From Psammoneis japonica (lineage: Eukaryota): DNA of 64,000 nucleotides. The stretch covers positions 62,001 through 126,000 of the forward strand of contig QPGO01000125.1 in the NCBI GenBank assembly GCA_008632985.1, read 5' to 3'. Every line of letters starts with the position of its first letter. Within the stretch, counting starts at the first letter, position 1. The notes beneath the pieces were generated by a model. The model was not told the origin of the DNA, ran no database searches, and was given only the letters and a program-made list of their open reading frames with translations. Below, piece after piece: positions 3,262 to 59,607 of this stretch. Made by a program: the position numbers and the translations under genes.

Positions 3262-3538
3262 AAGATCGAACATCAACCATAAAAAACTAGTAAAATGGGT
3301 TCGCATTTGAGCCAAACTTCCGAATCTTCTTCCTCATTCATCTCTGGAAGTTGAGTAGACGCGGTCACAAAGGACGCACTGGACCACAGTGAGGTTGCAA
3401 ACTGGTGCTCTCACATTTTTTCTAACTTGCTGACTTGCCAACGTCGCACGCGTCGGCAGGAGATAGAGTGAGAGAGTTCAGAGCGCAGCCGTCGGTGACA
3501 CCGAGTCTTTTTTCTTTTGTCAAAAGGACTGACACTGC

Positions 3539-4804
3539 GTGACAGACCCGGGCCCAACTGCCTTTGTCACATTTGGCAAGAACTCTGCGATCGAAGCAGG
3601 AGCAGCCTCAACATCCTTTCACGATCTCCTGGCTCGGGAAGGACTGTGCGTTGTTCCAGCTCCCGAAGTTCCATCTCATTGTCAGGTTGTGCGGCGATTT
3701 GTAGAGCTCCCTTCGCATTGGCTGCCTTCCAAGATCTGCACGAAGAGTGATGCTGAGAAAATCAAGGAGAGCGTCCGACAAGAGGCGCAGCATGCAGGCG
3801 TGTTCTCGGTTTCTAAGATGAAGAGAATCTTTGAACACATCGATGCCCGAATGGGTGGACGAGCACAAATTCAACCAGGGGAGACGGAGCTGGGTCGCTT
3901 CCACATTCATCAATTCGTTTTTGTTTTTGTCTTGTGGGACAGTCTGATTGAATCTGATGAAGAAGCCGGTCTTGAATCTGTTGAACGTCTAATGCGACTC
4001 ATCATGACCACCACTGGGAAGAATGATTTCGCATCCGCAAGCAAAATTGTTGTGGAGAACTGGAACTTTGATGGACCCACTGTGGTTTGGTGGCTTCAGC
4101 ATTTTGCTGCTGTCTCTTCCGTTCACGGACCAAGCAGCAGGAGTTGTCAGCGGCATGTTGGTAGCGTTCTCACTCTGTGCGTCGCCATGAAGGAAGAATT
4201 TGAGCACCTCGGTGCCCTTGCACCCAACAAGGAAGATCTGCAAGACCCATGGGAAAACAGAATCCTTGCTGCGGGTTGCTTGCCCGCATTTGACCTTCTT
4301 CTTGACGCCCACAAGTTCGATCCCTCGGATGAGCTCTACGAGGAACTTAAGTGCATCTCATTCCTGCACTCTAAACTCCTGCGTGCAGTGAATGAAGTGG
4401 CTTCGATTCCAAAAGACATTCATGACGAATGCGGCAGCCTCTTCACATCGACAATGACAGTTGATGGTTTGTCGCTTGATGAAACTGCAGCGAAGTTCTT
4501 CCAGACAATCCATCAAACGATTGAAAGCTTTGACAAGGTCAGCAACAAGCTGTTGGTCTCGCAGCCATCGAGCAACAAGAGACAGCTCCTTGAGGACTTT
4601 CTTAGCGGAGTCCGTCACAGCATAGTTGGTGCCATCGACTGGCATCTTGGTGGTGCGGAAGGTGCTTCTTCAGAGCGTTATGATGGCTTGAAGATCACAT
4701 GCCCTTCGAAGGAGGCTGTCACGCAGTTCGGCATGCGGCAGAACAAGCAGTTCGACCATTGGGAAAATGCCATCTCTGAACGAACTCCGTGGTGCATGCA
4801 TTAG
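3539..4804 (+). CDS. Class I (microbial-type) terpene synthase-like protein; start codon uncertain; TpA-hypermutated
   Basis: Aspartate-rich motif variant FVLWDSLIE, pyrophosphate-sensor-like WENRILAAGCLP, NSE-like NEVASIPKD and C-terminal DWH...SSERY, in the correct order and spacing. Only 2 Tyr in 421 aa. The ORF track starts at GTG. Confidence 0.7.
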   Translation: MTDPGPTAFVTFGKNSAIEAGAASTSFHDLLAREGLCVVPAPEVPSHCQVVRRFVELPSHWLPSKICTKSDAEKIKESVRQEAQHAGVFSVSKMKRIFEHIDARMGGRAQIQPGETELGRFHIHQFVFVFVLWDSLIESDEEAGLESVERLMRLIMTTTGKNDFASASKIVVENWNFDGPTVVWWLQHFAAVSSVHGPSSRSCQRHVGSVLTLCVAMKEEFEHLGALAPNKEDLQDPWENRILAAGCLPAFDLLLDAHKFDPSDELYEELKCISFLHSKLLRAVNEVASIPKDIHDECGSLFTSTMTVDGLSLDETAAKFFQTIHQTIESFDKVSNKLLVSQPSSNKRQLLEDFLSGVRHSIVGAIDWHLGGAEGASSERYDGLKITCPSKEAVTQFGMRQNKQFDHWENAISERTPWCMH

Positions 4805-4949
4805 TTTGATGTCATCAAAGAGCAGGGCCCTGTCGAGATCCTCTTACGTTTTGCATCAATGACTGGTGTCGGTCACGGCAATTAGCACCGTTCTTTCAAT
4901 GTCTAGACAGCGCCACCGCATCGCAACAGTGCGAGCTTTAGACAGTCAG

Positions 4950-5720
4950 ATTGTGTCGACGGATTTGAATTGAGAAGGACACGTCCTCTCATCATCTACG
5001 CTCGCTCGCGTGTCCACATGTTGGCAAAGCAATGTCACAAGCCTTGTCCCGCAATGCGTGTGTTTGAAATCAAGCGCACGTTTCTCCAAAAAGGTAGACC
5101 CCCGTCTCGGTTTTGGTGGAAAAGGCATGCTGCTCAAGCAACTCTCGTCCCTCGACATTGTCTTTTCCAGCAATTCCCGTGGCCGCCCATGACGGACATG
5201 CCGATGCAGCGAGAACATCACCAGAGCGTTGTCGATTCAACAAACATGCATGCCAGACCTGGGCCAGCTTGGTGTTGGAAAGTTTGGGAAGAACTTTTTC
5301 TGCCCAGAAAAAGTGCCCCTGTGACAATTGATGGAGAAGCACGCGTCGTGTCCTTGACGAGTCGTTTTGGCGACATTGGCCACCAAATCATCTGCATCCG
5401 ACACGGAACCCCAATCGCTGAAGCCCGACACAACGGGAATGATTCGCTCAGGCACTGCCTCATCATCATTGATTGTGTCAACGAATCTCTTCAACCACGT
5501 TTGTCAGCGCCTCTTGATGATTCAGGTCGACGGCAATTGCGGTTCCTCCCATTTCCACCACAACCTTGCAGACCGTCGTGCCAATGCCTCCCGTTGCTCC
5601 TGTTGTCGTTGTGAAACTTGCACTCTTGGAGGCTGGCACGTTGCATTCCCAGCGGCTGCTGGGTTTCACAAATGACTCAAACCAATTCGGCGTTCTTCCA
5701 TTCTCTTCTTGTGTCGTCAT
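4950..5720 (-). pseudogene. Short-chain dehydrogenase/reductase (retinol dehydrogenase/WWOX-like) pseudogene
   Basis: TGATGGIG cofactor motif (5580-5603) followed by AIAVD. IIPVVSGFSDWGSV and TRQGHDACFSINC...GHFFWAEKVLP match the family pattern TxxGYExxFxVNYLGHFLLTxxLLP. The match is split across several frames. Confidence 0.7.
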
Positions 5721-8312
5721 TTCTAAATGCGTGCAGTCGTTGCGTTGTAGCGCGTCTCTTGCATGAATCAGGAAGCGACGAGAAAGCATGGAATGATGCT
5801 GAAAGAAAAACGAAGGCCAAGCAGAGTGCTCCACACGTGAAATGGATGTTCGATTCTGTTTGTCATGTAAATTCATCCCTGCAGCATGGCAGAGCCATGC
5901 CATCGCATCATTGGTTGGCAGATGCATGGCTCTGGCTGCTGGCTGGTGGCTGCGCTGGGAGATTTGCTCGCTTGCGTCAGCAAATGTGCACCGGCATGAG
6001 TTGGTCGTGCACGTGTGGGTTCGAAGGAACCGCGAAACTGGCCACACCCTGCAGGAGAACAGCTTTTGAAATTAGGGCATTGCAGTTGGCAAGTTGGAAC
6101 GTCGGAGCACAGGAGATTCGAAATGTGCTGCTGCAGCAAGGCAACTGATTGTTGATCAATTGGCGACAATGCAGCATGTTGGATGCACAGAAGTTTGTTG
6201 CAGTTTGTGTTCTGCGGCGCTCTTGGAAGAAAGTTTGCTGTGTGGCTGGTGGAAGATGAGAAGAGCTGCACAAAAGAACTTTTGTGAGGGATCACAGAGA
6301 GGGCAGCTCACCAAAATGCTGTGATTCTTGCCACTGATGCACAGGCACAAGTGTTGGCTGCCCTGCTCCTGTGCTGCTGCGTGAACAGAAGCATCTTCTG
6401 CACAGCACAGACAAGGGTTTCAAGCGAAAGCAAACAACCATCACAGAAGCAACAAAACACACACTGACAAGCCCAAAACAATTCATGGTCAAGTCCAGAA
6501 CAGCCGAGACATGAACATTTTGTGGCATTTTCTGTCAACTGTTGCATCGACAGCTTTCTCTGTCCCACTCACTCCAGCAGGCTTTCGACAGAGATGCGTT
6601 GTCGTGTCAAGGACAAACAATGCAAGTGGCCATCACAGAAGACCTTGTGCCTGCATCTGTGCTGTGCATGTGGCAACACTCCAGACTTGTCTTCTAAAAA
6701 CTTGCAAAATCTTGTCCAAACCAACTCCATTTTGTCAGCACTGGCTGTGCGCAGGGATCGGCAAGCTTGAGTTTGTGTGACTCCTGAGAGCCCCTCTCCA
6801 TCTTGTTGGTCCACCCAGTTCCTTCTGGAGGCTTGGTGCACTCGTCAAATTTGTCAAGTGCAGTCTTGTCATTTGGATCTGCGGCAGCTGCTGAGAGCTG
6901 CAACATGCCACACTTTTTCCCTCCATGCTCCACATCAACATGAAAAAGTGTGCATCATCCTGCAATCCAATCATCATGGGCCACAGAATTTGTGTGACAA
7001 GGTGCTCTCCAAGGTGGGTGGTTGAGCAGAGGCCAAGGGAGCAATGCCGGCCTCCAAACCGGCATCCTCCATGGGTGCATCATGTCAGAGCCAAACGCAG
7101 GCATGGAGATGTTCTTGATGTCCATGATGTTGCCAATGCTCATGTTGCCAGCACCATGAAAGATGGTTGTTTTGCACTGAAAAGCAAAAAACAGTGGCAC
7201 AAAGAGCAAGGGCAAGCTGGGGAACATGAGATGGGACAAAGGACAATCCAATGCACAACAGAGCAATGGTGTTGTGATGTGTGCTTGCCTGTTTGTTTGC
7301 CACTCCACTGGACTCCATCCTGCTGATGACAAAAACAGCAACACGGATTCTGTTGATGACAGTTGGTCACACCTGTCAAAATGCAAGAAATGCCAATGCA
7401 AGACGTGTTCCAGACACAGGTGGGAATCCGCGTGACATTGAGCCCATGGAATTCTGCGTGCGAGCTCCACAGCAAAATTGCAAGCAATGAAAATGTCAAT
7501 GATCACCAACAGAAAATGAGGCAATTTTGCAAATGCACAAACTCGTCCATCATTGAAGTGCATCATTTTTTGCTCAGCCAGCTACATTCTTCAGACATTG
7601 AAGAATGCAACTCTGTGGTGCATTGTTGTTTCTGCAAATTCGTCACACAAAATGTTTGGGGGGCTTCACAAAAACAGCGAGTCTGGACAATTTTTTTTTG
7701 GAATGTCACAAGCAGAAATGCACACGCAAAACATGTGACGGATGACAAAAATTGTTTGTGTCACACGTCAGCACTGCGAGCTCCCACCCAGGGAGGCTGG
7801 AACACGTTGCGACAGCAGGCGAGACAAGATGTGAAAAAACAATGCCAACACGCAGCAACAAACCAAACCAAGCCATCACAACACACCTTGCCATGTTGGC
7901 GATCACCCGGCATGGCATGGGGGGTGCCATCTGTTGCAATGACTTGGAACGGCGACGCTCCATCTGTTGTGTTGTTGGTGGTGGCCATGTTTCGCTGCAC
8001 ACGAAAAAAAAAATTGGGCACCTGTCGCTGTGGCAAACAAAGATTTAAAGAACACAACCATGTGTTCTCATCATGTCCGAACATCATTGTGCAATCAACA
8101 TCACAGCTCTGCCTGCAAGGTGTGGCTAGTTGCACGGTTGCATCGAACCCCGAACCCCAACGTGCGCGACCAACTAGCTGCCGGTAGCCCGGCTAACTTC
8201 AAATTTAACATAAGGGATTGGAGATGTTCATAAAAGATACGAACTATTGAAATTTCGAGCTCTCTCGAGTGCGTGTTTCGACTTGCTGAACACAACACAT
8301 GCGTGCAACACC

Positions 8313-8785
8313 ATGACGACGCTTGCAGCACGACGATTGGCCTTGAGAAGGGTTACGCATTCCTTTTTGCGATCCCAACAACCCGCACGATGCTTTACTA
8401 TCCATAAACTTGCTGGTCAGGATGATAGTGATTTCAATCTATGGAAAAAGACTCCAGAGGTATGTTGTGTTTTGCGACTCTGTCTGACGTAGGACTAGTA
8501 CTGATTCTACATAGATCGGTACTTTTCGTTCAATCTCACTTGCTTTTCGAACTGTTTTGTTTTCTATTCCAGTACGCACTCGGAAAACATCGTTCCAATG
8601 CTTTGGAGCTTGTAGAGCAGCAAGATATCATCGAAGTGGACGGCGACATGGCAATCTGTGACGGTGGCGGCGGAGCTCTCGGACACCCGCTCGAATACAT
8701 CAAGGTGGGACACCGAGCGCCTGGCGAGTTTAAAGAATGCATTTATTGTGGATTAAAATATCGAAAGAAGCAAGGCGCACATTAA
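8313..8785 (+). CDS. NDUFS6: NADH dehydrogenase (ubiquinone) Fe-S protein 6, zf-CHCC subunit; exons 8313-8459 and 8573-8785
   Basis: CDGGGGALGHP..YI...CIYCGLKY motif, Arg-rich N-terminal mitochondrial presequence, and an in-phase GT-AG intron. Confidence 0.92.
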
Positions 8786-9427: not shown

Positions 9428-11068
9428 TTAGAAATCTTTCGATTTGAAGCTCCCCAGAATGGCGCTAAAGACAAACTTGATTGCGTTGTACCACGATGGC
9501 TGCAGGCTAATCTTAACCAAACCTGCCACTGTAGCATCAAAGACGGACTTGTTGAATTCAATTAGATGAGCTGGAGTGACAAACTGATCATAAATGATGC
9601 TCTTCTCCACATTCTCGTATCCAAAGGGGTTGCCGAAATTGCCTCGTCCTGTTTCAATTTCAGCTTTGGTCTCCTCCCCACAGCCACCCCATGTCAGGTG
9701 CGGTATGGCCCATCCCATGGCTGCGGTTCCATTTGCCGCAACTGTTCCATATTTCAAATCCGTAATGGCTTGCTCCAAGGCTGGGGTATGAGCTTTCTGC
9801 GTTGCCCCATCAATCAACACCGTGCAGCACAAACTACCGAAGAGTTTGTCGTTGCAGAATGGGACAGCCTCCTTCAAAAACGAGTCCGCTGTTGGCTCGG
9901 TATCCAAGGGAATCTCGCAAAAAACCTGCGTAAACGCCTCGTTGCGACAGGCATACGTGTCTTTCTGATCAAGCCCGGGGATCCAGAGACAACGGAACTT
10001 ATCGCCGAGCTTGCCCTCTTGTGGTTCAATGACAACCGAGTCGGGATATTCCTGCTGAAATTTGGCAAACGTTTTATCGGCACCCGGATACCAGGCGCCG
10101 ACTCCCGGTGTCAGACTCTTCAAGGCACGCACCATGCAATCCAAAAACTCCTGACGCTGCGGCCAGTTTTTCGAAGTGACAATCATTTGAGGACGTGCAC
10201 AGATCGCTCCACCCAAATGCTTGCCGATGGTTGCAATAATCATGGCTTGGTGTTCCATCTCGGCAGTCGTCCACGGCTTGTCACCGGGCACCACAATGAC
10301 GGGATTGACCCCACCGCATTCAGCGACAAGGTGTGACTTGATGGACTTTTCTATGAATCTCGCGTTGTTTGTCGAGCCCGTAAAGTAAACATGAGCGATG
10401 CGATCGTCACGGCAAAGGGCAGGACCGTCGTCTGCCTTGCAAAAGCTAATTGCCTTGTGTTGAGCAAGCGGCTCCAGAATTTTGATCCACACCTTATCAG
10501 ACTCCACGTTGAGAGGATGAGACTCGTAAACCACCACTCGATTGTCGAAAAAGAGACTCTTGAATATTTCCACAGCAGACGCAGTATTTCCTGCTCCTAG
10601 AATGGCAACAATTTCAGCAGGCTTGTCCATTGGATTCTTGACGACGGGTTCCTCGTCTGAAGACACACGAAGAATCATTTTATAAGTCGGATACAAAAAG
10701 GTATCCAAGTATGTTTTCGGAAAGGCATAAACATCATAGCTGCCGTCGGAAACCTTTGTCACGGAGTTTGGTTCGAGGGGGGTACCGTACTTTCTCAGGC
10801 TTTCGTACAGATCGATGCACGTTTTGACGTTTCCGGACGGAGCAAGCAGACATGCAAGAGAAACACTGTCTCCAGAGTAGGCATTTTCTTTTCCAATCAT
10901 CGTGTTATGCGCTGCCGCAACTGCTTCCTTCAATTCGTCACCATAGGCAAGCATGTTGGATCGGACTTGGTAGAGCAACGCAAGTCGATCCTCGATGCTC
11001 GTTTTAGCCCACGCATCCTTGTCGACAGAGTCAACAGCTTCTTTTGCGTTAGTGACTGGAGGGCTCAT
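9428..11068 (-). CDS. Aldehyde dehydrogenase family protein (intronless)
   Basis: AILGAGN, HVYFTGS, AECGGVNPVIV (ELGG-like), catalytic-Cys region GAICARPQ and NEAF. First ATG at 11068. Confidence 0.85.
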   Translation of the reverse strand: MSPPVTNAKEAVDSVDKDAWAKTSIEDRLALLYQVRSNMLAYGDELKEAVAAAHNTMIGKENAYSGDSVSLACLLAPSGNVKTCIDLYESLRKYGTPLEPNSVTKVSDGSYDVYAFPKTYLDTFLYPTYKMILRVSSDEEPVVKNPMDKPAEIVAILGAGNTASAVEIFKSLFFDNRVVVYESHPLNVESDKVWIKILEPLAQHKAISFCKADDGPALCRDDRIAHVYFTGSTNNARFIEKSIKSHLVAECGGVNPVIVVPGDKPWTTAEMEHQAMIIATIGKHLGGAICARPQMIVTSKNWPQRQEFLDCMVRALKSLTPGVGAWYPGADKTFAKFQQEYPDSVVIEPQEGKLGDKFRCLWIPGLDQKDTYACRNEAFTQVFCEIPLDTEPTADSFLKEAVPFCNDKLFGSLCCTVLIDGATQKAHTPALEQAITDLKYGTVAANGTAAMGWAIPHLTWGGCGEETKAEIETGRGNFGNPFGYENVEKSIIYDQFVTPAHLIEFNKSVFDATVAGLVKISLQPSWYNAIKFVFSAILGSFKSKDF

Positions 11069-40691: not shown

Positions 40692-41521
40692 TTAGCTACT
40701 CTCTTGGTTAGATTCTATTTCTCGAAGCAACTTGTCTCGACAACAGGGACATTCGTCAGACTTTCTCAGCCACAAAACTATGCAATCGCGGTGAAAGGCA
40801 TGATGGCATTTTGACACGTTAGAAATGGCAACTTGCTCGTCGTCCATGAACGATTGAAGACAGATTGGGCATGTTAGAGCGTCAGTGGTCCTGTTGTCTC
40901 CGAACAAATCTATGCTTCGATCGTGAATGGGGTGTTGAACACTGACTTCAGTGTTTTCGTTGTCATTTACGTTGCTTGAACCAGTAGTGCGCAGCGTATC
41001 GACGGTATCACCAGAGGTGGACGATGTATCTGTTCCTATTGAGATAATCTTGTGTCATCAAATTGAAAGGTCAAAGTAGATGCAAGCGTGTCAGTTCCTG
41101 CATTAGCACGGAAGATAATAACTACACAGCATGTAGTACCTTCGACTCAAGACATGAATCAATCATGGCTTGTCTGTGTGGCTCCGAATCTGTTACTTGG
41201 TCATTCTCGTCTGAATCTGCTGGCTGTTGCTGTTGACAATCAAGTAAATCGAACTTTTTAAGAATAGCGAAAAGCAGCACTAGAAAAATCAATGATAGTA
41301 AAACAAGACACTGTTTAGGAGCGAGTGTTCAAATAATGGAGATATGGTTGAGAAAAAGGGGTATGCAGGAATTTTCATTTGTAAAGTAGCGACTCGTGTA
41401 TGGATTCACTCACAAATATCATTGCTGAGCCGTTCTTTGCATCGCCGCGGGGATCAGAATCGGACCCCAAGCGAAGTCCCCGAGTAATGTTGGCGACGCT
41501 GCTCTTGCGGAGGAAAGACAT
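40692..41521 (-). CDS. TM + RING-H2 E3 ligase, tandem paralog 2, 3 exons
   Basis: CPICLQSF...CHHAFHRDCIVLWL...CPCCR. Exon structure and sequence closely parallel paralog 1. Confidence 0.85.
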
Positions 41522-42199
41522 TTTTATTTCTACTGCTAATGATGGCATTGGACTATCGAGGAATGTGAGTCGAGAATATTCTTTGACTCAAAGCTCGGGA
41601 ATTCCGAACCCCACATGCTAACAACCACTATCAAGTTTGGTTCGTGTCGCGAAAGCAAAAAATGTGATCGCGAACTGAACAGCGGCACGATTGCGGAGGA
41701 GGGGCAATAGAATGCTATTGGTCTTTTTAATCAGGTTTGGTTAGTTTCATTCTTTGCCGATGACGTGTCGTGTGTCGTCGTCTGATCGGGCAAATTTTTT
41801 GGGCTAGTTGGTGACCGTTTGAATTTAACGGCGAGCGAAGCGAGCCTCAGCGCACAAAAGTAACCCGGATGTTAAATCTTGAGTTTGTTGAAAGCACCGC
41901 GACATCATTGCGACGGTTGTCGATCGACCATGGCACCTTTGGTACAAGTTACAGAACACAACATCAACATTATTCCCGTTTCTTTTTTCATTCTTAACAA
42001 TATTTCCACAATCTATCCGACAAGGTTGGTCACATTTTGTGTCAATGAGAATTGTGGATTTGTGGTTTTGTCAAAAAGTGTGCCAGAAAATCGATTGTGC
42101 GATTCGAGACAGGCTAGCACTATTTCGATTGTCAATCACGCTTTCACCAATTTTCTCACTTATTTTTTGTTTTTCATTAATCTTTGTTTTTTACAGAAA

Positions 42200-47600: not shown

Positions 47601-47646
47601 CAATGTGGAATAACATGTGACGCAATGCTGCCATACAACGCGACAC
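46288..47646 (-). pseudogene. DD34E transposase (Tc1/IS630 type) interrupted by one in-frame TGA at 47233-47235
   Basis: HTH-like ISETTLHRW..., then PGFHLDE, FLDES, ILDNA...H and HSPDLNPIE (34 residues between the second D and the E). ORFs 47233..47646 and 46288..47226 are in the same frame. Confidence 0.9.
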
Positions 47647-48114
47647 GGTTTGCTACGTTTGGTTGTAAAGGTTGCAATGAGATGGACCTGCCGCTTGATA
47701 AAGGAAAAATGTACTAGACTCACGTAGAATCCTACGTGTTTTTGTCGTTTTTCGACTTAGTGATTTTCGCGGGAGGCTGGCGCAAAAGTTGTGCGTTAGG
47801 CAACTCTATTTTTGGGGGGTGTCGCGCGATTTTTTCCGCGGATGATGAAAATGACTGTATCGCAATATGGTACAGGTCAACCCGAGGTTACCCTAAGTAA
47901 TATCCGTTGAGAAGGGTTGTGCGAACACGAACCACCAACTAGCACGAAAAGCTTGCCTCTGATCGCGAAGGAGCAGGTGAGGTAAGATAGAGTAGATGTT
48001 GTTAAAATAACTATCGTCCCAATCCAAAAAGTTGCTATGCGACAGCATTAATCCAACACATCGCTTTCCAATTATATCAACTGCATTCCCTACGATGCAC
48101 GAATAACTCTTGGT

Positions 48115-48959
48115 CTAATCTTGATCTTGTACCTTTATTCTGTCATCTGTCGCAAGGAATTTCGCTCGACAGACTGGGCATTCACTGTGACATTGCAACC
48201 ATTCGAGGATGCATTTGCGGTGAAACAAATGCTTGCAACCCGACCGCGCTGAATATGCAACATCGTCTTCTCGAAGGAAAACTTCTAGGCAAATGTGGCA
48301 GGGCGTAGCAACGTCCGTCGTGTCAATCTCATTATTCATTTCTTCGTCACCGCTATTTTCCATCGAAGCACACGATTTTTGAGGCTTCAATGACGAAATT
48401 TTAGGAACAATATCGTCTGCAGTCAGTTCGGTCAAGTTTGTATCAGTTGTTGATGACTGATCAGCTTCGATGTCTCCAAATTTCTGCGCAAAACATCAGT
48501 CGCACATCGGAAGAGAAGATATTAATATCATACATAGTCTCAAGTCTCCACGCACCTTTACTACCAAACTTTCGTCAATCTGCCGTTGTCTATTTTCTTG
48601 TCTGCGCTGAGCTTGGGCTTCGTTGAACTCGTCTTGACGGCGTCTCCGGGCTTCCGCAATTGAACTTAGATCGGCATTGAATAAACCATCGAGAGGGTGC
48701 AAATATCCAAGTTTTCTCCAGAGAAGAGGCAAGAATACGAGAAGGCCAAAGGCCAATATGACTCCAACCTAGGAAAATGTTGAAAAAGAAAAATCAAAGC
48801 AGCTAAGTTAGATGCAGTTTACAATGAGAAAAATTTTCGTGTCGAGCGGCTACTACTCACAACAATGTTTACTGTACTGATTCCACCACCACTACCTCCA
48901 GCGCTTGTGCTGTCGCTTAAGAACCGATCCAACAATTGGACTTCGATTGTACTCGCCAT
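48115..48959 (-). CDS. TM + RING-H2 E3 ligase, tandem paralog 3, 3 exons
   Basis: CHICLEVF...CKHLFHRKCILEWL...CPVCR, with TM exon LAFGLLVFLPLLWRK...IDESLVVK. Confidence 0.85.
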
Positions 48960-49314
48960 TTTTCAAGGTCGATTCGTTGTGCTTCTGTGCTTCGCCGTCA
49001 ACACGTTAACGTATCATGGACTCATGTTTCACAGCTTGCAGAACTGAGAACACACACGTCGGCGGCAAAAAAAATTCGTACCATAGTAGTCTGTAGGTTT
49101 CTACGTAAATTTTTCTTTTATGTATTTATTAGAGACTGATATTTCTCATATCACGACGTAAAGCACATAAGCCCACAAATGAAATTTGGAGGACCTCAAA
49201 AAAGCAATGTTGAATATCGTATATCGTAGCTTCGTACGAGTACTGTAGGAAACGAACAAGGGCTCGGCTATTTTACGAGTACTGTAGGTCTGGTACGCGA
49301 TTCGACTCAGACCA

Positions 49315-50111
49315 TTATGCGTGTTCTTCATCTGGGAGCAAGGTACCTCGACAGAGTGGGCATTCCTCGTGTTTCTGCAGCCACCCTACGATGCAGTCGT
49401 GGTGAAAGCAATGCTGGCACCCCGAAACGCTCGAAAGCACAATCTCTTCGTCACTCAACATTTTTTCCAAGCAAATAGAACACGTCGTGGCGGTGCTGAT
49501 ATCTCTTGTATCGCAATCTATTGGAGTTGCCTCTGGAGTTGGAGTGGGTGTTGTCGTGGCACCTATTTCGATATCATCTGCAGAGTCATCAGAGGACGTG
49601 TCACTATGATCTTCAGCTACGACCTTTGAACGCACCAAAAAGGAATAGTCAGAGACAACGAAGATACTGGAGAAGATATCGTACGAATCAAGATGGCGTT
49701 ACGAACCTTCTTGACTAAGAACTGGTCAACCTCTCTTGGCTTTGCATCTGCGGGAGTTTGGGAAGGCATTTGAACCGGAGCTCTGTGTCTTTGCCTTTGT
49801 ACATGAGCTTGCGCTTCAACTAAATTACGATTCAGCTTTCGAAGATATCGTCTGAGTAACACTGGTAACAAGAGGATGAGAGCGGCGAACAAAACAAGAC
49901 CGACCTGACGGAGAATGAATACAAGTGTAGAAAGAAACGAGAAGGTAAGGCGTTAGGCAGCATGCCACACGCAGTAGCCAGCCAAAAACAGTCTAGACGT
50001 TATGAAATGCAGCTGCGATCAAGATACAAGAGTCTGGTAAGGCCACGAACTTACAACGATGCCGACAACCTGTTCCGTCCCAACGTCGTTGGTCGTATCT
50101 GATGCTCCCAT
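49315..50111 (-). CDS. TM + RING-H2 E3 ligase, tandem paralog 4, 3 exons
   Basis: CSICLEKM...CQHCFHHDCIVGWL...CPLCR, with TM exon LFAALILLLPVLLRRY...VDQFLVKK. Confidence 0.85.
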
Positions 50112-50459
50112 TAACCGCCCAATAGTTTCATACTGAATATTGACTTCTACACCCACTAGGCGTCTCATATTATTACTTTTTGAAAGCATTTTGTAGATTT
50201 CATATCATTATTTTTGCCTCATGCGGCTTTGTTTTTGCAAAGATGGGAAATGGGAATGACAGGTGTTGTCGTGTCGAAAATAGTCGGTGTCAAGATCGCG
50301 AATCGGGAAGCAGATGCGGGAGTGATGGCGGAGTTCTTTTCCCGCGCAAACTAAAAAATCCAAAGGCCTTTTACAGTATTCGAACATCGTGCTGATGTCA
50401 TCATTGAGGCGAGGCGCGCGTTTCTCTTTTCTTTGGTCTTTGGGCGAGCGGGGCGGGAT

Positions 50460-52870
50460 GGAGGCCTTTCCTCCGACGACCTGCCTCTCGCAGATCCCAT
50501 GCATCCCACGACTTTCTAGAGAAGCACAAGAGCCACAGTGCAGTTCCCACTGAAGTGCACAATGCTGTTGATGCAGTCATGACTGCCGCTTGCCACAGCT
50601 TGAAAGATTGTGCTGCTGGTTCTGACTCTTGCAAGACTTCAAGAATCAACAGCATGGCAGAGTGCCCAGGCACCCGATGGGACAAGGTGGACGACAGTCG
50701 AAAGCGAGCACAGGAAATTGAGGAGAGCAAGGATCTTTTCAAAGTTTGACCAAGGAAGAAATGGAGTGACCGTGTGGTGTGCGATCAAGCTCAGCTTTGT
50801 GTGCTTGGATTTTGCCACTCAGTCAAAAGCAAGAAGAGGATCTTGTGTCGATGTGCAGAGTCTCAATGGAGTTCACAAACTGAAGGATCCAACAATGGGA
50901 AAAGTTGTCACTCCTCCAGCTTGAGCATGGAATGATGCAACTCTTGAGAGCCAATTTGATGCATTTCAAAAATCGGGCGTGTGTCAGACGTGGCTGCTGC
51001 GCACCACACCCCCTGCGCGCATGACCCATTTGAACATTCTTTTTGCCTTGCTGAAGACTGGACTGGAGGAGTGCATGAAATCATTGAAGAAAGTGTTGAG
51101 CAGTCTAGGTGTTGAAAAGCAAACAGAAAATTGCACTTGCAACTCACACGCTCAAATGAGAGAGGATGAAGATGATGGGCCCGGTGCTGACAACATCTTT
51201 TTGTTGCCAGGAACAAAGCACAAACAACTTGTCCGAGCATCATGCTGCCCGGCAAAGGAGGAGCCAATGCTCTGCACTGAGGTTGAAGGCCATCTACCAA
51301 AGCCAATCCCTTGGAAATGAACACACAGGAACTGTCAGAGTTGTGAAGTCAAAAAGATGAAGCTGCAAGAGTGCAAAGCACTCGCCAAGCATGACATTGA
51401 GATCACCACAAAGGAGTGGTTGCCACCAAGAGCTGGGACAAATGCAAAAGGGAAACAGAACACACAGACAGAACCTGACAGATGTCAAGCTCCCAGTGAA
51501 AGTGGGCGTCTCATGCAGCGCATTGACACACATGCCTTTGCCCTTGAGGAGCCACTGATCTTAGAGATGACTTCTCCACAATGTGCAATCTTTGAGCCCC
51601 CCTGACCAACAATTGCTCTGTGGATGCCCACCCCATCCTCTGCACATTTGCTTCATTGCACTTGCCAAGGACAATTGCAGTGAAGCACAATGGCGTGGAC
51701 AAGAAGTGGTGAGCAAACAAATGCAACGTCTGGCACTTTTTTGGCAAAATGATGTCAAAAGGGAAGAAGAACAACTGCGTCTTCCACAATGCAAGCCTTC
51801 TAGAGATTGTTCAGCATTGCAAATGCCAACTCAAGTGCAGCAGTGTTGACTTGATGTGAGTGACAGTGTGGACCAACAAGTGTGGGCCTCAATGCAAGTG
51901 CAGCCAAAACTTTTTGAGAAATGCAAGATTTGCAAGCACTGTGAAAGGGGTTGCAGCAAAACTCGCCAGCTTGCCCAGAAATGCCATTTCAAAGGTGCAT
52001 GGAATGCAGCAGGGAAGGTGGTGAAGTGCTGCATGTGGCATGTGGAGCTCCGCAGAGTGAGATTGCCCACAGCATTTGAGTGCTTCAAAGCGATGTGACA
52101 AGAGCTCGGGAAATGCCAAACTTGTGACCAACTGGAACGCCCTTGAAGCATCCAAGCATCCTGATGTCCTTGCAAAGAAAACATTCATGGTGTCCAGAAG
52201 ATTTCACGAACATGCAACTGAAAAGAAAGAGCAGTTTGAGCTGTTGCAAAATGAACTCAAGAACATTGCATTTGCTGACCATGAAAATGCACCTCAAGGA
52301 ACCCGAGTCAAGGACACCCAGAAACTTCATCAAGTGCCCAGCTTTCTCAATCTGAAGCCACAGGACCCAAGCATGTGGAAGATCCTTGCAGCAAAAATGC
52401 CTTGTTCATGCCTTTGTTGTCAAAAGAAAGTGCAAGAGACCTGTCTGATCAAGCATGTCACAGATTCAAAGGCGCATGCTGGGTGAGGGAACAAATCGAC
52501 AACTCAGCAAAAACAGCAGAATTGCAAGGGCAGTTCAAGACATGCTTGCCACAACTTGCTGAGGTGTTTGGCATGAGTGACGTCACCAAGAAAATGATCC
52601 AGGACAAGCTCAGACTGCTTGGATTCAGGCCTCAAACACAAGGTTGCACAATGTCTTGTTGGCCACATCTCTGCTCCGGAAATGCAGATGATTTGCACCT
52701 GCTGCTTGCTGAAAATTGCACTGTTGTGGATGCTGACATGCACAATGATGAGAACAAAGACATGGTTTGGATGGTGTTGGAGGCAAAGGAGGCAGATGCC
52801 ATGGTGCAGACAACAAACTTGATGTCATTGATTGTTTTTTTCAGCGGGTCAAATGAGCGGTGCTGAGGGC
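50460..52870 (+). mobile_element. Degenerate DNA-transposon transposase relic, Sola2-like
   Basis: VTVWTNKCGPQCKCSQNF (~51860-51915) and AQKCHFKGAWNAAGKVVK (~51970-52030) resemble the WxDxCxxQYK and HGKGxxDGxGxxVK motifs. A Cys-rich region lies upstream. Many stops and frameshifts; superfamily assignment is from memory. Confidence 0.5.
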
Positions 52871-55199
52871 ACCCCAGGTGTTTTTTTTTGCACTCATGAC
52901 TCAAAGCTAAAAACAAAAACAAAATTTCACTGAAACGTTGCCCTCTTCAACTCCTGATTGTGGTGGGTGTCTGGGTGGTCAACGCATGAACTCACAATGA
53001 AGAGTGCTCCCAGCCCATCCTTTGTTGGCCCTCAGAGTCATGGCAGTGAGTGGGTGTGGTGTGCAAAATTTTGGCAGATGGACAACCAGCATGGATTTGT
53101 TGATTCTTTCAGCTGCGCATGTGACATTCAGTGAATTCAATTTTGCATGCCGATGGTCAACAGTCATTTCTCAATGACTTTGGAAGTTGTTGACAATGCT
53201 GTGATGATCATTGTCATGTGTTGCAAGCTCTGTCAAGTTGTCCCAGTCTTTCAAAGAATTCCCCAAACCCTCCATGTGTCAACTGCAGTGCTGTTGGGTC
53301 CCTGGGGGTTGTTCACATCAGGAAAGAAAATTTCCCAGGCTGCTGTTTGCATTCAAGATTGGAGCCGCAACCTGTGGTGAAGACTTGGTTTGACAGGTCA
53401 TTGCTGGGCGCTGCTCAAAGAGCATGATGGTGTGCAATCTCATCACAGCAATGCTCCCCTGTGTGCTCATCTTGAGCTTGCAGGTCTTCTTCAGCATGTT
53501 TTTGTTTCCTCCTTGTGTGGCTCCATTGATTGGCCAACCAGCTCTTGTCTTTCCTTCTTGGGGTGCACTGCAGGCTTCTTCTTGCTGTCAAAGCTGATCT
53601 CTTCCCAGCTGCTCTGTCAATGCTGTTGCTTTTGCACAATTGCCAGAATTGAAGTGTTGTCCCATGCAGAAGCTGGCATTCTCTTGGGTTGCTTTTGCAT
53701 GCTGCAAAGGCTTCAGCTTGCCCCACTGCTTGCTTTCTGTTCAGCCGCCTTGGCCAAGTGCGTGTGTCTCTTTTCTCTGGCTCTCACAACAACAGATGCA
53801 TGAACTCCAGTGCCATGTCACACCTGACTGGCAACAAACAACTGGTCAGTCATCACAGCTGAACTGACTTTTCTGTCACCTGCTCCTTTGCTGCTCTCAC
53901 ACAGAGCTGGTGTGCTTGTGTCAACTCCCGCTGCTGCCATTGCAGCAGAGACATGACCTGCAAAGACTCAACTCTGGCTGCCAAATGAATGCCGGCAGCT
54001 TTGATGCAGCAAATGAAGTTCCAGCTGGATTGGACCAATGGACAGCATGCCTCCACTTCATTGTTGCAGAAAAGCTCAACGCAATGCCACTCTGCCACCT
54101 GCCAACCCATTGCTTCACCAGCATTGTGCCCGCCACTTTCAGCAGTCTCATCTGACAAAGAGCTGACATCATCTGCATTTGGAGCCATCAAATTCTCCTT
54201 GATGTCTTGAGTCAGCTTCCTGATTTCTTGATCTAAGTGGCTCAACCTGGGCCCTCGATCATCAGCCCAGAGACAAAAAAAAAAACTCCAGTTTCTTGCA
54301 AAGCTTCAGCCAAACAATCAAGTCCTCACCTGCGTTCCAGATTGGTGCATCAAAAAAGGCTTTCAAAGTCGTCGCGACTATTTTCCCGAAAAAGTTCCTG
54401 AAAGAATTCATCCATGTCGCTGCACTCTCCCGCCTCAGTCCAGATTTTCGCGACTCGGTTCATTGTCGCGCAAAATAATTTAAGGGCCTCACTGTCCCCC
54501 GCCAACCGCCCACTCTCTAGGATGCCATCAAGAGCAGTGAGCCGGTCCTCATCCATTTGCAAGTCCTCGGGGGGATCAGAACTTAGAAATGCAGCTTGAA
54601 GAGGAACAGCCGACCCATCAATTTCCTCAAACTTCAGCCTGTGATCCTCCAGACTCTGCATCTTCAAGAATTTAAAGAAAAGAGAACCCTTGTCTCGGCT
54701 GTGTGATTTCAGCATTTTCTTTGCCCAATGAAGAGGCAAAGAGGAAAGAGGATTGGGCTCAGCAAATGAAAATGCAGACCTGCATGAAGTGGCAAAGTGG
54801 CAAGCATTCCATGCAGTCTTGCTTTCTTTCTTTCCCTGCACTCCTTCCTGTTCTGACTTCCTTGTTCAGACTTCTCCATTTCAACAATGAAAGCCAACCC
54901 CCTTGAACTTCACCTGAGTGGACATGATGGCAACCATCAGCTGAACTGTGAGCAAGCTGCAATGCAGTGGTGGGATTGACGGTGCTGTTGTTTTGTGCTC
55001 TCATGTTTGTTCTCTTTGTTCATGGTTGGGGAGCGGGGATCAATCCCTTGGGTTTGTTGGTCATCTCATTTGGATGGGAGTGATTTTGAGTTGGAATTTG
55101 GACAAGGGTGCAAATCGTGTGCATGTTTGGTCATGCCGGTGTGCTCGTGCATCTTGTCCAACAGAGAAATTTGTCATTGGCAACATGATTGCATGTGCT

Positions 55200-57500
55200 G
55201 CATCCACACACCAAAAAAGTCACCCAGCTCCTCCACAAGCTCCCTGAGCTTGCTTTGTGTCTTCTGTGTGGTCTTTTTTGAACTCTCAATCTCCAGCTCA
55301 TGAGTGTCTTTGTTGAGCTGCTCACTTTGTCCCTGACATTGGAGCCACTGCTCCTGGTGGTGTTCTGGACAGTGATTGCTGGCTGTCACTCTCTGCCCTC
55401 CTCTTCTGTGGCCTTGGCAGAGCTCCAAAACAACTGTGCTGGAACAGCCGGTGCATCCACTCTTTGGGTTTGGTTGGATTTGCAAAATTTCAAACATGCT
55501 GTGGAGAGAATCAGGCACCCAGAGGCAGTGCGCTCCTCTGATGGGGGTGTTGGAGTTGACAGCTGCTTTGGAGTGAGCCAAGCACACTTGTCTCTTTTGC
55601 TTGTTCACCTCTCACCCACCAGCCTCATCTTTTTTCTCTCACCACCACTGTTCTTGTTTTCATTTGTGGTTGCAGCTCCACATTTTGAGCCACAATTTTC
55701 AGCACCATTTCCCCTTGGATGTGTCTCATCATCTTTGTTGGGCATGGATTTGTGGCTGAATCTGCCATCTGCCATTGTTCTTTTTGAGCAGTTTCTGGGT
55801 GAGCATGCTCTTTGTGCTCCTCCAGCACCAGGAGTGGACCATTTTGAAAAATGTCTTGATGGTGCATTGTCATTCCCACACAGAAAGCAGACATCCATCA
55901 AGTTGTGAGCCACACTTTCATGACAGCAAGTGGCGGGGCTCCTCTGCCACAAAACAAAACAAAAGAGCTTGTCCCTTTGCACAATCTTTTGTTGACATTG
56001 GTGACAGATGTTCTCAAACAGAGCAACTGGCATTTCCATCACCATCACACTTGCCACTCTTGTCAGTTTCATTGGTTCAGATTTTGTGTTTGGCGCGGTG
56101 CTCCTTCTGCTTTCACACAAACCACATGACTTGCACTGCAACTCTGACCCCATCTGTCCTGTGAAAACCACCTCTGACCCCAATTTCCCAACACTCTTTC
56201 ATGTGAGTCATCAATCGATTGACCTCATGCACATCAAGCACGGGGGATGACACATGAAAACCATGCCACCCAACACCATGTCAACTTTTCCATTGATTCC
56301 CATGGCTCACATCATCCGACTCTGCCAACGAATGACCGCTGTGTGAGGACAATCCCTCCTCATGTGCCCAACTTTGTTGTGCTTCCAGCACACATCTTCT
56401 TCTTGTCATTCTGTGCAAAACTCATGCCCTCAGGTTTCTTGTTGGTCCCATGCCTGTCCAACACCTGCAATGCCTCCTCAGCTGAATTGGGGTGCATGTC
56501 AACCCCAGCCAGCATGAGCTGCCAATGTGGGTCTTTCAAGATGCATTGACAATCCTTGGCAGCATCCACTGGCTTCACTGCTGATGACTTGTTCCTCTCT
56601 TTGCTCCAGACATCATCAACATCCTTGTTGAACCCATCTTCTTTCTTGGCCATTTTTTCTGGGATGATCCTGCCATTTCAACCTTGCTCACAAACTGGCT
56701 GCAATGGCCTTGAAAAAGTGTTTCTCCTTTGTCTTGACAAATGAGCACCAACTGCTTCCAAGCCTCAACCCCCACCAGGACATGTGTTCTCATTTGCGTT
56801 GGCTTGAGAATGCTCAGTGGTGCCACCACATCCAACTCCTTTGTGGCTCTTGCAAACTCCACCACTCTTTCAAGCTTGTCATGATTGGCCTTCGTGCATT
56901 GCCCCACAATCATGTTCAATGCCTTTGCCTTCTGCGTCTTGTAGATTGAGCTCTGCTTCACATGGTGACCACACTTTTTGCCCCAGATTGCCTTGTCTTT
57001 CTCCAATGTGGTGTCTCCCAATGCATGATCCAGCTCTCCCAGCATGCTCTCCTGCCTCACAGATGCCAGTGCTTGCATCTCTGGCCTGAAGGTTCTTCTG
57101 ATGTGCTCGCCACCAGCATCATGCACCCACTTCTTCAGCTCTTTTGCCCATCTTTTCCCGGACTTGCATTGGAGTTCCATGGCTTGCCAACTGATGCAAA
57201 CTCTGTCTTGCTGACCCTGAGATGACCTTGCCCCACCCTTTTTTAGCAGACCCTCAACAGCTTCTTTAACAGCAAGGCCCTCCAGAGACCATTTCTTTCC
57301 CTCATCCAGCCAGCTTGCTTGCTGCAATGTGCCAACATGAGGCACACCTTTGGTTTCTTGTTGACCTCCTGGCCCTCTCCTTTTGTTTCCTGTTGACTCC
57401 CCAGCCCTTGTCTGCAGATTCCTTTTTGCTTTCCAGCCCTCACACTCTGTGGATTTCTCTCAACTTCCCAGCCCTTGTTCTGTGGATTCCTCTTGACTTC
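55200..57500 (-). mobile_element. Degenerate Ty1/copia (CoDi-like) LTR retrotransposon gag(-pol) relic
   Basis: KAKALNMIVGQCTKANHDKLE...DVVAPLSILK and LAGVDMHPNSAEEALQVLDRH match the diatom copia gag patterns (LIxGQCxxxMxxKLE...DxxxLLxxIK; GxDxYPxxxxxAxxxLxxY). No LTRs identified. Confidence 0.65.
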
Positions 57501-59607
57501 TTAGCCCTCAAATGACGCCACTTTTTTGAATGTTGTGCCATGACTTTTTGGCTTCTGCGTTGGAGCTTTTTGTGGCTTGTCAACTGGCGCACATTTGGCA
57601 TCACCATCTCCTGCTCTCTGTGTGGTTTGCAAACACATTGGCTGATGCCGCTGGCTGTCATTGCTGTGTTGGCTGGGTGCAGAAGCCAAAAAGCAAGCAC
57701 AAGACCTGCAACTCAATCCAAGTTGTGAGTGCAAACTTGCCATGTTGTCTGCAATTGTCAGCATGTCTTACACTGCAACTCTGTCTGTCTGTTCTGCAAA
57801 AACTGCCTCTGACCCCAATGTCCCAACATGATGATGGTGCAGCATGTGACAACCATCATTTTTTTGAGTGTGTGCCATGGCCAGAGAGGTGTGGTTGACA
57901 AGATGCTCTCCTTGGGAGCTGCACTCAGATTGAGCATCAAAATTTGAAAGACTGCAAGAGCAAACCACTCAAGCGAACCTCTGCAAATGCACACACATTT
58001 TCTGGCTCTTGGATGGAAATTGTGAGCCTGACACAGATGATGAAAAATGTGCAGCAGCTTCAGCCCCAATGAGCCCCATGCCCATCTCCATGAACAAGCA
58101 GCAGCAGGGAAAAGGCAGGTGCAAATGTTCTCAATCAAATGATGGCAACACCACATCTGCAGAGTTTGCTGGTGGAAAACCCAGAAAGATGAACACAAAA
58201 GCTCTGAAGGAAAGGCAAGAAGGAGAAGAAGAAAAATTCTTGGAAAAAAGAAGTGCTTAAAAGGAATGACAAGAAGGGCTTGTTGAAGAAACTGCAAGAG
58301 CTTGAAATCAAGCACGAGAAAGAACCATTTTAAAGAAACAGCAAGAGTTTGACAAACAGCAACAGAAGGAGTTGTCAAAATGACAACAAGAGCATGAAGA
58401 TGAGTTTGAGAAAGAAGAGAAGAACAACAAGGACTTGTTGAAGAAATGGCCTGCCAGAGCTTGAAAAGAAGCATGAGAACAATGTGCAGAAAGAACATGA
58501 AAAGTGGCAAGGTCACAAAAAAAAAGAGAAGCAGTGGAAGCAGCAGCAGTGGCAGCAGCAACGGCAGCAGCAACAACCATTGCCATGGCTGTGACAGCAG
58601 GCATCATTTTGCTGAAATGGCAGCTCCAAAAAGAGAAGAAAGCAACACATGGAGGAGTGAAAAATGCTTTCTGAGTTTGAACAACCAGCTGTTCAGTGTG
58701 CAAAGCTGATGACAACAATCAAGGTGGTGAGCTGCCAGGAGGCAAAACAACTGAGCACCAATTTGAGCCAGAATTCAACAAGTTTGTGGAATGGCAGCTC
58801 AAGCAGTTTTTTTGAGCAAGTGCAGAGGCAACAGGAGTCATTTTAAAGAAGGTGTCTTTGCAAGCACATCCAGGTGGTGTTCCCTTGGAGCTCTGGAGAA
58901 ATGCCGCTTTTGCTGGGTGGAAGTGCAGCAGCACTGAAAACACAGATTTTGTGTTTTGTTTTCATTTGGTTTCTTGCACAGGCCCTCAACTCCACCCCCA
59001 TCCCATCTTCTGTGTTTTTTCCATTTAAACTGTGGCACCACAGTCTCCAGATAATGAGGCAGTCTCTGCAACTGGCCCACCTTTTGAAGGCGATCTGTTG
59101 ACAACAAAATTGCACTTGCTCTTTAGACGCAAAGCTCGCCATGACGGCATCTGCCATTGAAATCGCCATTCCTTTGGTCTAAACTGGGAAAATTGTCGAT
59201 TGCACCCCCATTTTTAGCAATCACATCGATCTGTGGATGTCTTTGAGCGCGACACGAATGGCATGGCAAGATTAGATTGAGAGCTGTCGAACGACACAAA
59301 CTCTTCCCAAGGCCACCATCATGAAAGGCGATCCCACACCTTCATGTCGGTTTCTTGCATTCAAAGATCACAGATCTGTCAGGTTCATAGATTTGGGGGG
59401 CTGACGTCGTTATTTCGGCGCAAATATTTTTAGCTTTTATCATAGAAGTAATTGGTTAGGACTATCTCGAACGCTCCAGTGCGTAACTGTCTGTCAAATG
59501 GTGTGAATCAAGCCGCCTTGGATGTGTTTGCTTGCAGCGCCGACTCTTGTTACGTTGCAACGGCCTAACTGCTGTAAAGTAGCATATAAAAATAAGTAAA
59601 AAGAATA

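Follow-up and report, generated by a model that had tools for sequence, protein, structure and literature searches.

Conversion of TpA to TpG and CpA in Sharply Bounded Domains of a Psammoneis japonica Contig

Introduction

A 64,000-nt stretch of the genome of Psammoneis japonica (GenBank assembly GCA_008632985.1, contig QPGO01000125.1, positions 62,001 to 126,000; "the window" below is this whole stretch, and coordinates count from its first letter) alternates between gene-bearing host DNA and four blocks in which the dinucleotide TA is nearly missing and TG and CA are abundant. The locus raises the question whether TpA was converted in these blocks or whether they were poor in TpA from the outset and, if it was converted, in which direction, at what time and by which rule the DNA was chosen. 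To our knowledge, no cellular process was known before 2026 to erase TpA from chosen parts of a genome. A preliminary description of the window had proposed an undescribed, repeat-targeted A>G hypermutation at TpA. Here we report an in-place conversion of TpA to TpG/CpA that affected the two strands alike, was confined to bounded domains of selfish or dead DNA and was biased by the flanking bases. The same signature is described, with live mutations, in a preprint on Bigelowiella natans (Mettrop et al., bioRxiv 10.64898/2026.01.13.699255; hereafter the B. natans preprint), to which we return in the Discussion.

Results

Four Blocks Are Nearly Free of TpA

Observed/expected (O/E) ratios of TA, CG and TG+CA were calculated in sliding 1-kb windows, and the limits of the blocks were set from the TA positions. 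Four TA-depleted blocks, A to D, together cover 32,304 of the 64,000 bases (50.5%). They contain 90 TA (~1450 expected) as compared with 1434 in the other half of the window, and the longest stretch without any TA is 3266 bp. Each 1-kb window holds 24–77 TA in host DNA and 0–13 in block interiors, with up to 24 where it overlaps a block edge. Block A (3465–8046) has O/E ratios of 0.081 for TA, 0.661 for CpG and 1.61 for TG/CA, with 23 TA in 4582 bp. The corresponding values are 0.018, 0.187 and 2.12 for block B (23359–37300; 17 TA in 13,942 bp), 0.092, 0.696 and 1.48 for block C (42341–47611; 30 TA in 5271 bp) and 0.035, 0.197 and 1.73 for block D (50518–59026; 20 TA in 8509 bp). In the five host segments they are 0.59–0.73, 0.99–1.16 and 1.10–1.17. 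Both the 1-kb windows and the TA positions thus confirm what had been noted first about this DNA, namely four sharply bounded, TA-poor and TG/CA-rich blocks filling about half of the window, with TA-normal host DNA between them. Their limits had then been put at ~3.5–8.15, 23.35–37.3, 42.2–47.6 and 50.4–59.35 kb.

The edges of the blocks are sharp (≤100 bp), and TA and CpG shift together across them, e.g., at 37300, 47600 and 50500 at 100-bp resolution. The depletion of CpG, which the preliminary description had not stressed, is unequal, being strong in B and D and milder in A and C. The GC content is 0.48–0.50 in the blocks versus 0.46 in host DNA. The earlier statement that neither fungal repeat-induced point mutation (RIP) nor deamination of 5-methylcytosine (5mC) can produce the TpA loss is upheld.

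Since TAA and TAG are lost (2.1–7.7 per kb in the blocks versus 41.4 in host DNA), leaving TGA as almost the sole stop, long false reading frames fill the blocks: 44 of the window's 67 stop-to-stop frames of at least 150 aa fall there, and many of these overlap one another on the two strands. In such DNA, gene prediction will yield false genes. There were no Rfam matches at gathering score in the 64-kb window, and a Pfam search of 145 open reading frames (ORFs) of at least 75 aa from sub-regions A2 and B1, the left part of C, and D gave no transposable element (TE) domain. The recognisable TE relics and the satellite that had been ascribed to blocks B–D therefore stand as a DDE_3 transposase in C and a satellite in B, and not in these ORFs.

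A Transposon Cut by a Block Border Records Direction and Timing

Block C covers part of an older multi-copy repeat and most (94%) of a Tc1/mariner-like DNA transposon that sits in this repeat (43649–47857, minus strand). The element was delimited by its inverted repeats and an alignment of its arms, which are ~150 nt long. It has a DDE_3 transposase frame of 314 aa (46291–47232, minus strand; PF13358, E 1.4e-17; 14 homologs), terminal inverted repeats (TIRs), TA at its right end and TG, a mutated TA, at its left end. Tc1/mariner elements have TA as their canonical target and duplicate it on insertion. The left copy of the target-site duplication (TSD; 43647–43648) lies inside the block and now reads TG; the right copy (47858–47859) lies outside and still reads TA. 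Because insertion duplicates TA, the TG on the left arose after insertion, at the present locus.

The arms of the element tell the same. The left arm (43649–43796, plus strand) is inside the block and mutated, and the right arm (47710–47857, minus strand) is outside and has kept its TA. The eight aligned TA of the right arm, TSD included, are read in the left arm as TG (two), CA (five) and TA (one), and the alignment of arms and TSD shows no reverse case, i.e., no TA of the left arm that reads otherwise in the right. The block border at 47611 falls inside the element, with 20 TA in the 3963 bp within the block (O/E 0.08) and 11 in the last 246 bp outside it (O/E 0.63).

A change of TpA to CpA or TpG in a tyrosine codon (TAY, where Y is a pyrimidine) gives CAY (His) or TGY (Cys). 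At the seven columns with a Tyr majority among nine homologs, the transposase frame has His at two, Cys at three, Arg at one, Phe at one and Tyr at none, and its Tyr content is 0.3% as compared with 2.0–5.9% in homologs. All 56 of 56 metagenomic loci encoding relatives of the transposase are TA-normal (O/E 0.43–1.03). Other copies in the reads point the same way: 40 of the 164 rows of differences between these copies and the window were examined, 16 of them in block C, and in five of the 16 the other copy, from sequencing run X1, carries TA opposite a CA or TG of the window. One further row is a CA versus TG pair, and four have CG in the other copy and TG or CA in the window.

These comparisons bear on the alternative that the blocks are natively poor in TA, being foreign DNA or elements selected to avoid it. 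In its favor, B1 and D have no recognisable ancestor for comparison, and a terpene-synthase-like frame in block A (see below) is still open. For block C this alternative is contradicted by the border inside a single transposon, the two readings of the TSD, the arms differing at 7/8 TA, the destruction of conserved Tyr, the TA-normal relatives and the TA found in other copies at CA/TG sites of the window, and we give it hardly any weight. That TA was converted and not merely avoided, as had been proposed, is thus borne out by the TSD (TG versus TA), the arms (7/8), the Tyr columns (His or Cys at 5/7) and the change in O/E from 0.63 to 0.08 within one element.

The left end of the older repeat appears to lie near 41789, judged from a tentative inverted pairing with 47933–47957, and the depletion begins at 42341. 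By word depth, 42.0–45.3 kb is multi-copy, and 46.0–47.3 kb is single-copy-like (57–64), as are the flanks. In one run X1 contig, at depth 60, positions 43622 and 47873 are separated by 37 other letters. By eye this contig looks like another copy of the older repeat that lacks the Tc1-like insertion, either an allele or a paralog. At the target site it reads CA, and at two nearby sites on the right it reads TG; the window has kept TA at all three.

Satellite, Gene Relics and Unclassified DNA in the Other Blocks

Block B, the most depleted domain, consists of 4.4 kb of unclassified DNA (23359–27800), a satellite and a C-rich tail; ORFs of its left part gave no Pfam match. The degenerate satellite (27801–36300, plus strand, 8.5 kb) has an 11-bp unit with the consensus CACACATCTTG (Tandem Repeats Finder) and contains a duplication of ~3.08 kb (27786–29469 versus 30869–32509, 88% identical in self-BLAST). 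Between the two copies, 10 of 13 adjacent double differences are CA<->TG, and among single differences CG<->CA/TG is seen 26 times and TA<->TG twice. Two unit positions dimorphic for TG/CA read TG 85, CA 59, CG 4 and TA 0, and CA 90, TG 28, CG 1 and TA 0, respectively. Because a few CG but no TA are retained there, decay of CpG explains these positions equally well or better. The duplicates were therefore rejected as a polarity control, the ancestor being ambiguous between CG and TA. Thus, of the three internal controls put forward in the preliminary description, the TIR/TSD and the protein motifs hold, and the duplicate satellite units do not discriminate.

In block A the gene-like relics that had been reported are found as a terpene-synthase-like frame and a weak dehydrogenase remnant. 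The former is an open frame of 423 aa (3533–4801, plus strand; PF19086, E 1.8e-4) with its N-terminus truncated at the block edge. It has six homologs at 36–41% identity, all six with PF19086, and at the nine columns where these have a Tyr majority it has Tyr at two, His at two, Cys at one, Phe at three and Ile at one. The three Phe may be plain divergence at this level of identity. The most conserved motif region of the frame is intact, its CpG is normal and its TAG stop stands in a TTAG context, one of those that resist conversion (see below). It is either a recently silenced gene or a gene still under some selection within a hypermutated domain. The second relic (short-chain dehydrogenase, adh_short; 5481–6071, minus strand) matches PF00106 at E 0.0013, under the curated cut-off and at residues 157–196 only. 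The left part of the block (A1, 3465–5500) is normal in CpG, with 8.4 TA and 55.0 CG per kb as compared with 45.0 and 54.9 in host DNA; in the right part CpG is reduced. A small zf-CHCC domain gene (8432–8782, plus strand; PF10276, E 1.1e-12) adjoins the block on the right.

Block D (50518–59026), depleted of both TA and CpG, is unclassified and partly multi-copy DNA, with a word depth of 180–670 at 52.0–53.3 and 56.0–58.0 kb versus ~60 in the flanks. The ORFs tested from it gave no Pfam match. A 29-nt motif occurs in three copies (50408–50436, 53752–53780 and 55576–55604), of which the one at the unmutated edge of the block is CpG-rich and the two internal ones show stepwise CG>TG/CA decay. 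These copies are a small internal illustration of the CpG process.

The Blocks Are Present in the Reads

Modified DNA can cause systematic errors in basecalling, and the blocks might accordingly be an artefact of sequencing or assembly, e.g., of long-read miscalls at modified bases. The reads that match the window come from one study. Its run X1 was used as Logan contigs, which are made of exact 31-mers, at a depth of ~60. Run X1 carries 85% of 1059 words sampled from 41001–51000, its contigs differ from blocks C and D at 0–6 positions per listed piece of 0.5–2.9 kb, and they bridge both edges of block D. In C and D the read-derived contigs thus agree with the assembly, and an artefact of consensus or polishing is excluded, but the agreement is not independent because run X1 may be the assembly's own data. 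The changes at the level of protein and TIR are, moreover, coherent with real mutation. We consider an artefact scarcely credible.

Many further run X1 contigs match parts of the blocks at 90–95% likeness, with a summed depth of 180–670; parts of the blocks are multi-copy. In a second run, X2 (listed as "DNA?"), the contigs lack 72 bases at 48483/48556 and 83 bases at 49621/49705; these gaps have CT..AC ends, as splicing of minus-strand RNA would leave them, and X2 probably represents the transcriptome of the same sample. Its contigs lie only on host genes (48066–50250 and 59459–60000) and none on blocks C and D, which we did not use as a sign of silence.

TpA Loss Precedes CpG Loss Within Common Borders

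Survival fractions and mass balances were calculated with the host density as ancestral baseline, an assumption that makes them approximate. Relative to host DNA, A1 has changed by −36.6 TA, +0.1 CG and +30.4 TG+CA per kb. The changes are −39.3, −10.9 and +42.9 in C, −42.6, −43.6 and +73.7 in D, and −43.4, −49.1 and +89.6 in B1, so that the loss of TA and CG is about equal to the gain of TG and CA. The surviving fractions of TA and CpG are, respectively, 0.19 and 1.0 in A1, 0.13 and 0.80 in C, 0.05 and 0.56 in A2, 0.05 and 0.21 in D, and 0.04 and 0.11 in B1. As A1 has lost ~81% of its TA with CpG unchanged, and C 87% with a CpG loss of 20%, the loss of TA is separable from that of CpG and much faster. 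TA loss precedes CpG loss, and both share borders.

The common borders could also suggest a single process, in which one deaminase of dual specificity would act on CpG (C>U/T) as well as on TpA (A>I). Borders shared to ≤100 bp and products that are TG/CA in either case agree with this, and the B. natans preprint cites ADAT2 enzymes for which deamination of A as well as of C in DNA is claimed. The separable rates in A1 and C argue against it. For B. natans, the main text of the preprint counts 230 A>G/T>C changes at TpA among 231 hypermutations and none of the C>T type. We regard a single enzyme as highly unlikely. Cytosine methylation by itself leads to decay of CpG to TpG/CpA. Methylation of diatom transposons at CpG by DNMT5a is established (PMC9998398), and on that account methylation of the DNMT5a type would suffice for the CpG loss in the blocks.

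The simplest reading of the common borders is that the TpA mutator acts in methylated, silent chromatin. We infer that the blocks are silenced, cytosine-methylated chromatin and that this state, and not sequence homology, recruits the mutator. The preliminary description had taken the targets to be repeats. The selfish or foreign ones are the Tc1-like element in the older repeat (C) and the satellite (B), and block A contains relics of ordinary-looking enzyme genes. The depletion spares the last 246 bp of the Tc1-like element together with an adjoining piece of the older repeat. Given this border inside an element, the single-copy-like depth at 46.0–47.3 kb and five TA-normal RING-H2 paralogs between the blocks, a "repeat-induced" process is not shown, and a rule based on chromatin domains fits better than one based on homology.

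Flanking Bases Influence the Conversion of TpA

The TA that survive in the blocks are not a random sample. Contexts of the type YTAR, where R is a purine (CTAG, TTAA, CTAA/TTAG), make up 49 of the 90 survivors as compared with 283 of the 1434 host TA (p = 2.5e-12), and RTAY contexts (ATAT, GTAC, ATAC/GTAT) make up one of 90 as compared with 392 of 1434 (p = 6e-11). Sorted by 3′ neighbor, survival is 0.00–0.04 for TAT, 0.01–0.13 for TAC, 0.08–0.27 for TAA and 0.05–0.35 for TAG. TAT has the lowest survival in all five of five sub-regions, and TAA and TAG have the highest, except for a tie of TAC and TAG in A2. Most readily hit is therefore the A in T-A-Y or, equivalently, the T in R-T-A. Of eight converted Tyr codons, a small sample, those that became His (T>C) follow G, G, G and C and those that became Cys (A>G) follow C, C, A and T, which fits "A in TAY" rather than "A in RTA". 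An analysis of trinucleotide products, in which the ancestral composition had to be assumed, gave no decision between the two.

Both strands are hit alike, as judged from the counts of TG/CA (460/463 in A, 478/497 in C and 940/896 in D). No strand-coordinated runs of TG versus CA were detected (z −1.6 to +0.1 in the blocks and −1.3 to −0.3 in host DNA), in a test that native TG/CA dilute. ApA is not depleted, with 78.3 per kb in host DNA and 80.6, 78.7 and 86.3 in A, C and D, respectively.

Polymerase eta-type error-prone synthesis and ADAR both give A>G with a preference for a 5′ T/U, and ADAR prefers a 3′ G. One could thus think of repair synthesis by an error-prone polymerase of the eta type (A>G at WA, where W is A or T), which had been listed among the candidate mechanisms, or of ADAR-like editing of transposon RNA that is copied back into DNA. 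Pol-eta-like mutagenesis at WA is contradicted because ApA is not depleted. As to ADAR, the order of 3′ neighbors (T>C>>A~G) is opposite to its preference, as TAG is one of the contexts that resist best. A cut-and-paste DNA transposon, a target duplication that derives from the host, and a satellite are all affected, and the strands are hit equally. On the strength of the ApA count and the mutated TSD, both routes were rejected, and we see next to no chance for either. The 5′ preference of ADAR is also remarked on in the B. natans preprint.

Ordinary Genes Lie Between the Blocks

Between the blocks are ordinary genes with long uninterrupted frames (FMO, aldehyde dehydrogenase-like, Rcd1, kinase, MFS transporter, TLDc, CCCH and five RING-H2 paralogs). 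The RING-H2 paralogs (38992–39351, 40695–41054, 48118–48495, 49318–49698 and 59611–60042, all on the minus strand; PF13639, E 2e-11 to 2e-13) form a dispersed array with blocks C and D interposed between its members, and all five are TA-normal. Two of them belong to a duplicated segment of 0.7 kb with 71% identity. In a search with this one host protein, the product of the aldehyde-dehydrogenase-like gene (9431–11068, minus strand) had a few relatives at 52–60% identity; the match in Amphora coffeaeformis is at 60% and that in Epithemia at 42%, and many other relatives, at 38–47%, are bacterial or metagenomic. The best named relatives are thus diatoms, which makes a diatom host plausible. By these matches, it looks like an old bacterial transfer into diatoms.

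Discussion

We propose that, after the sequences had settled at this locus, a mutator acting at the level of DNA would have turned TpA into TpG or CpA, by A>G or, as read on the other strand, T>C. It would act on both strands, but only within domains that also lose CpG, which we read as silenced and cytosine-methylated chromatin, and would run nearly to saturation, faster than methyl-CpG decay. The neighbor on the far side would matter, with TAT and TAC (= ATA and GTA) going first and YTAR last, and ordinary 5mC-driven decay of CpG to TpG/CpA would be superimposed on the conversion. It would be a process of the same kind as the TpA hypermutation of B. natans, here in a diatom-like host. The data show directly that TpA was converted, in which direction, in place and within which limits, on both strands alike and with a flank bias; the silent state of the domains, targeting by this state and the enzyme are our interpretation. 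As to the chemistry, our guess is that a deaminase of the TadA/ADAT2 type, brought to silent chromatin, deaminates adenine in DNA to inosine. The process as described is very probably correct, and the enzyme is a tentative candidate at clearly less than even odds; to the explanation as a whole we assign a probability of roughly 0.75.

Several points weigh against this explanation. All of the evidence is a footprint, in which no mutation was seen arising, and the reads that agree with the window may be those from which it was assembled. For the ancestral composition of the blocks, host DNA served as a stand-in, and survival and mass balance are accordingly approximate. The silenced state of the domains is read from the co-extensive loss of CpG alone. 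Mutated copies diverge, and the targets may thus have been repeated in the past, which bears on targeting by chromatin domain. The flank bias is relative, since three or four of the seven converted sites in the repeat arms have "resistant" flanks. The terpene-synthase-like frame has Phe at three of its nine Tyr columns, and a TpA mutator cannot yield Tyr->Phe. Finally, a deaminase acting on A and a process directed at T are not separable by sequence, because TpA is self-complementary.

This last point leaves room for a modification of T at TpA in silent chromatin, e.g., a TET/JBP-type base like 5-hydroxymethyluracil (5hmU), which would mispair with G or be mis-repaired and so give T>C. All our results fit "T in RTA" as well as "A in TAY", and a palindromic target suits a mark that is copied like CpG methylation, within the same borders as the CpG loss. 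In dinoflagellates, 5hmU reportedly favors TpA and TpC. On the other hand, 5hmU:A pairs are not strongly mutagenic, and no result here speaks for a modified thymine. The sole paper on the signature, the B. natans preprint, favors adenine deamination in its main text, likewise without proof. We therefore hold a T-directed process to be unlikely and keep adenine deamination as the candidate.

The data add three new constraints on the mechanism, namely the TAY/RTA flank rule, borders shared with CpG depletion, with TA loss coming first, and borders that are independent of element ends. It follows from the occurrence here that TpA erasure is not peculiar to a single species; either it is an old trait of the stramenopiles, alveolates and Rhizaria (SAR), or it has evolved more than once. 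A further idea, which we consider doubtful but would like to put forward, is that TpA in the silent chromatin of SAR algae (diatoms, chlorarachniophytes) may be the target of a new system of DNA base modification, either a chromatin-recruited adenine deaminase serving genome defence or a heritable, palindrome-copied modification of TpA beside CpG methylation. If this were true, TA-free blocks would be the mutational shadow of that system, and the shared CpG borders and the TAY/RTA rule would be the first handles on its targeting and active site. Diatoms are genetically tractable (CRISPR, methylomes, histone maps), so that candidate deaminases or modifiers can be knocked out, and a comparative test becomes available, i.e., a search for genes that the species showing the footprint have in common and the other species lack.

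Among the known systems, RIP of ascomycete fungi is likewise a dinucleotide-specific transition hypermutation that ruins selfish DNA and reading frames and leaves sharp compositional blocks. It makes TpA from CpA and produces AT-rich relics, whereas here TpA is removed and GC is 0.48–0.50. The border here cuts through an element instead of leaking beyond it as in RIP. With respect to the duplication trigger of RIP, part of C has single-copy-like depth, a border lies within an element and the RING-H2 paralogs are untouched, and mutated copies diverge. Deamination of 5mC as expected in diatom transposons (DNMT5a; PMC9998398) would explain the CpG>TpG/CpA part of the changes in B, D and the satellite, and 5mC methylation probably defines the same domains as the TpA loss. 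It cannot remove TpA, and A1 lost its TA with CpG intact.

AID/APOBEC enzymes, which hypermutate retroviruses and retroelements, also leave a host-inflicted, context-specific deamination footprint on selfish DNA. However, they act by C>U on single-stranded DNA in strand-coordinated clusters, and here the changes are A>G/T>C with no coordinated runs detectable. In TadA and ADAT2-ADAT3 the target A follows T/U, as here, and the product is read as G; the natural target in tRNA is A34 after U33. Adenine base editors derived from TadA favor TA flanked by pyrimidines, a preference that may resemble the TAY bias. A natural activity on DNA is unproven in algae.

The closest system is that of B. natans. 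Its preprint (bioRxiv 10.64898/2026.01.13.699255) reports TpA-only A>G/T>C hypermutation, so the process in the window is not of a new category and was not undescribed, as had been supposed. According to the main text, two integrated viral regions received 231 of the 302 nuclear single-nucleotide mutations of the mutation-accumulation lines, and 230 of these 231 were A>G or T>C, all at TpA, at a rate of ~6e-7 per site per generation, a thousand times background. It further reports 124 TpA-poor, CpA+TpG-rich clusters in the genome, enriched in transposase and reverse-transcriptase domains, with low-TpA coding sequences enriched in DDE and reverse-transcriptase domains. The main target there is single-copy, and an ADAT2-like adenine deaminase is proposed as a hypothesis.

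As far as the preprint's main text allows comparison, the two systems agree in the change (TpA>TpG/CpA only, on both strands), in its confinement to delimited regions with normal flanks, in TpA-poor, CpA+TpG-rich clusters that include DDE transposase sequences, and in a GC-ward bias that runs against the genome's usual AT-ward bias. Over many consecutive windows, blocks B and D and 5.0–8.0 kb of A pass both the TA and the TG/CA cut-offs of the B. natans type; block C windows have TA O/E of 0.05–0.12 and TG/CA of 1.40–1.62, and only some pass the second cut-off. The systems differ in that the rate was measured de novo there and the process is known from its footprint here, and in their hosts, a chlorarachniophyte there and a diatom-like stramenopile here. 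The loss of 81–87% of TA beside 0–20% of CpG in A1 and C is an indirect hint that the rate may be raised here too. The main text of the preprint does not mention diatoms, CpG, "context" or "trinucleotide"; measured against this text, the CpG-shared borders and the flank preference are additional features of the window. Full-text literature searches, with subscription journals outside their reach, gave no report of TpA-erasing hypermutation in diatoms. Depletion is also deeper here, with TA O/E of 0.02–0.09 as compared with a Rho of 0.45 in the hypermutable insert of a nucleocytoplasmic large DNA virus (NCLDV) there, and the targets, giant-virus or virophage inserts in B. natans, are here a DNA transposon, a satellite, unclassified repeats and dead genes. 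New, and not found in print, is thus the occurrence of this process in a diatom-like genome, near saturation and on a DNA transposon, a satellite and dead genes.

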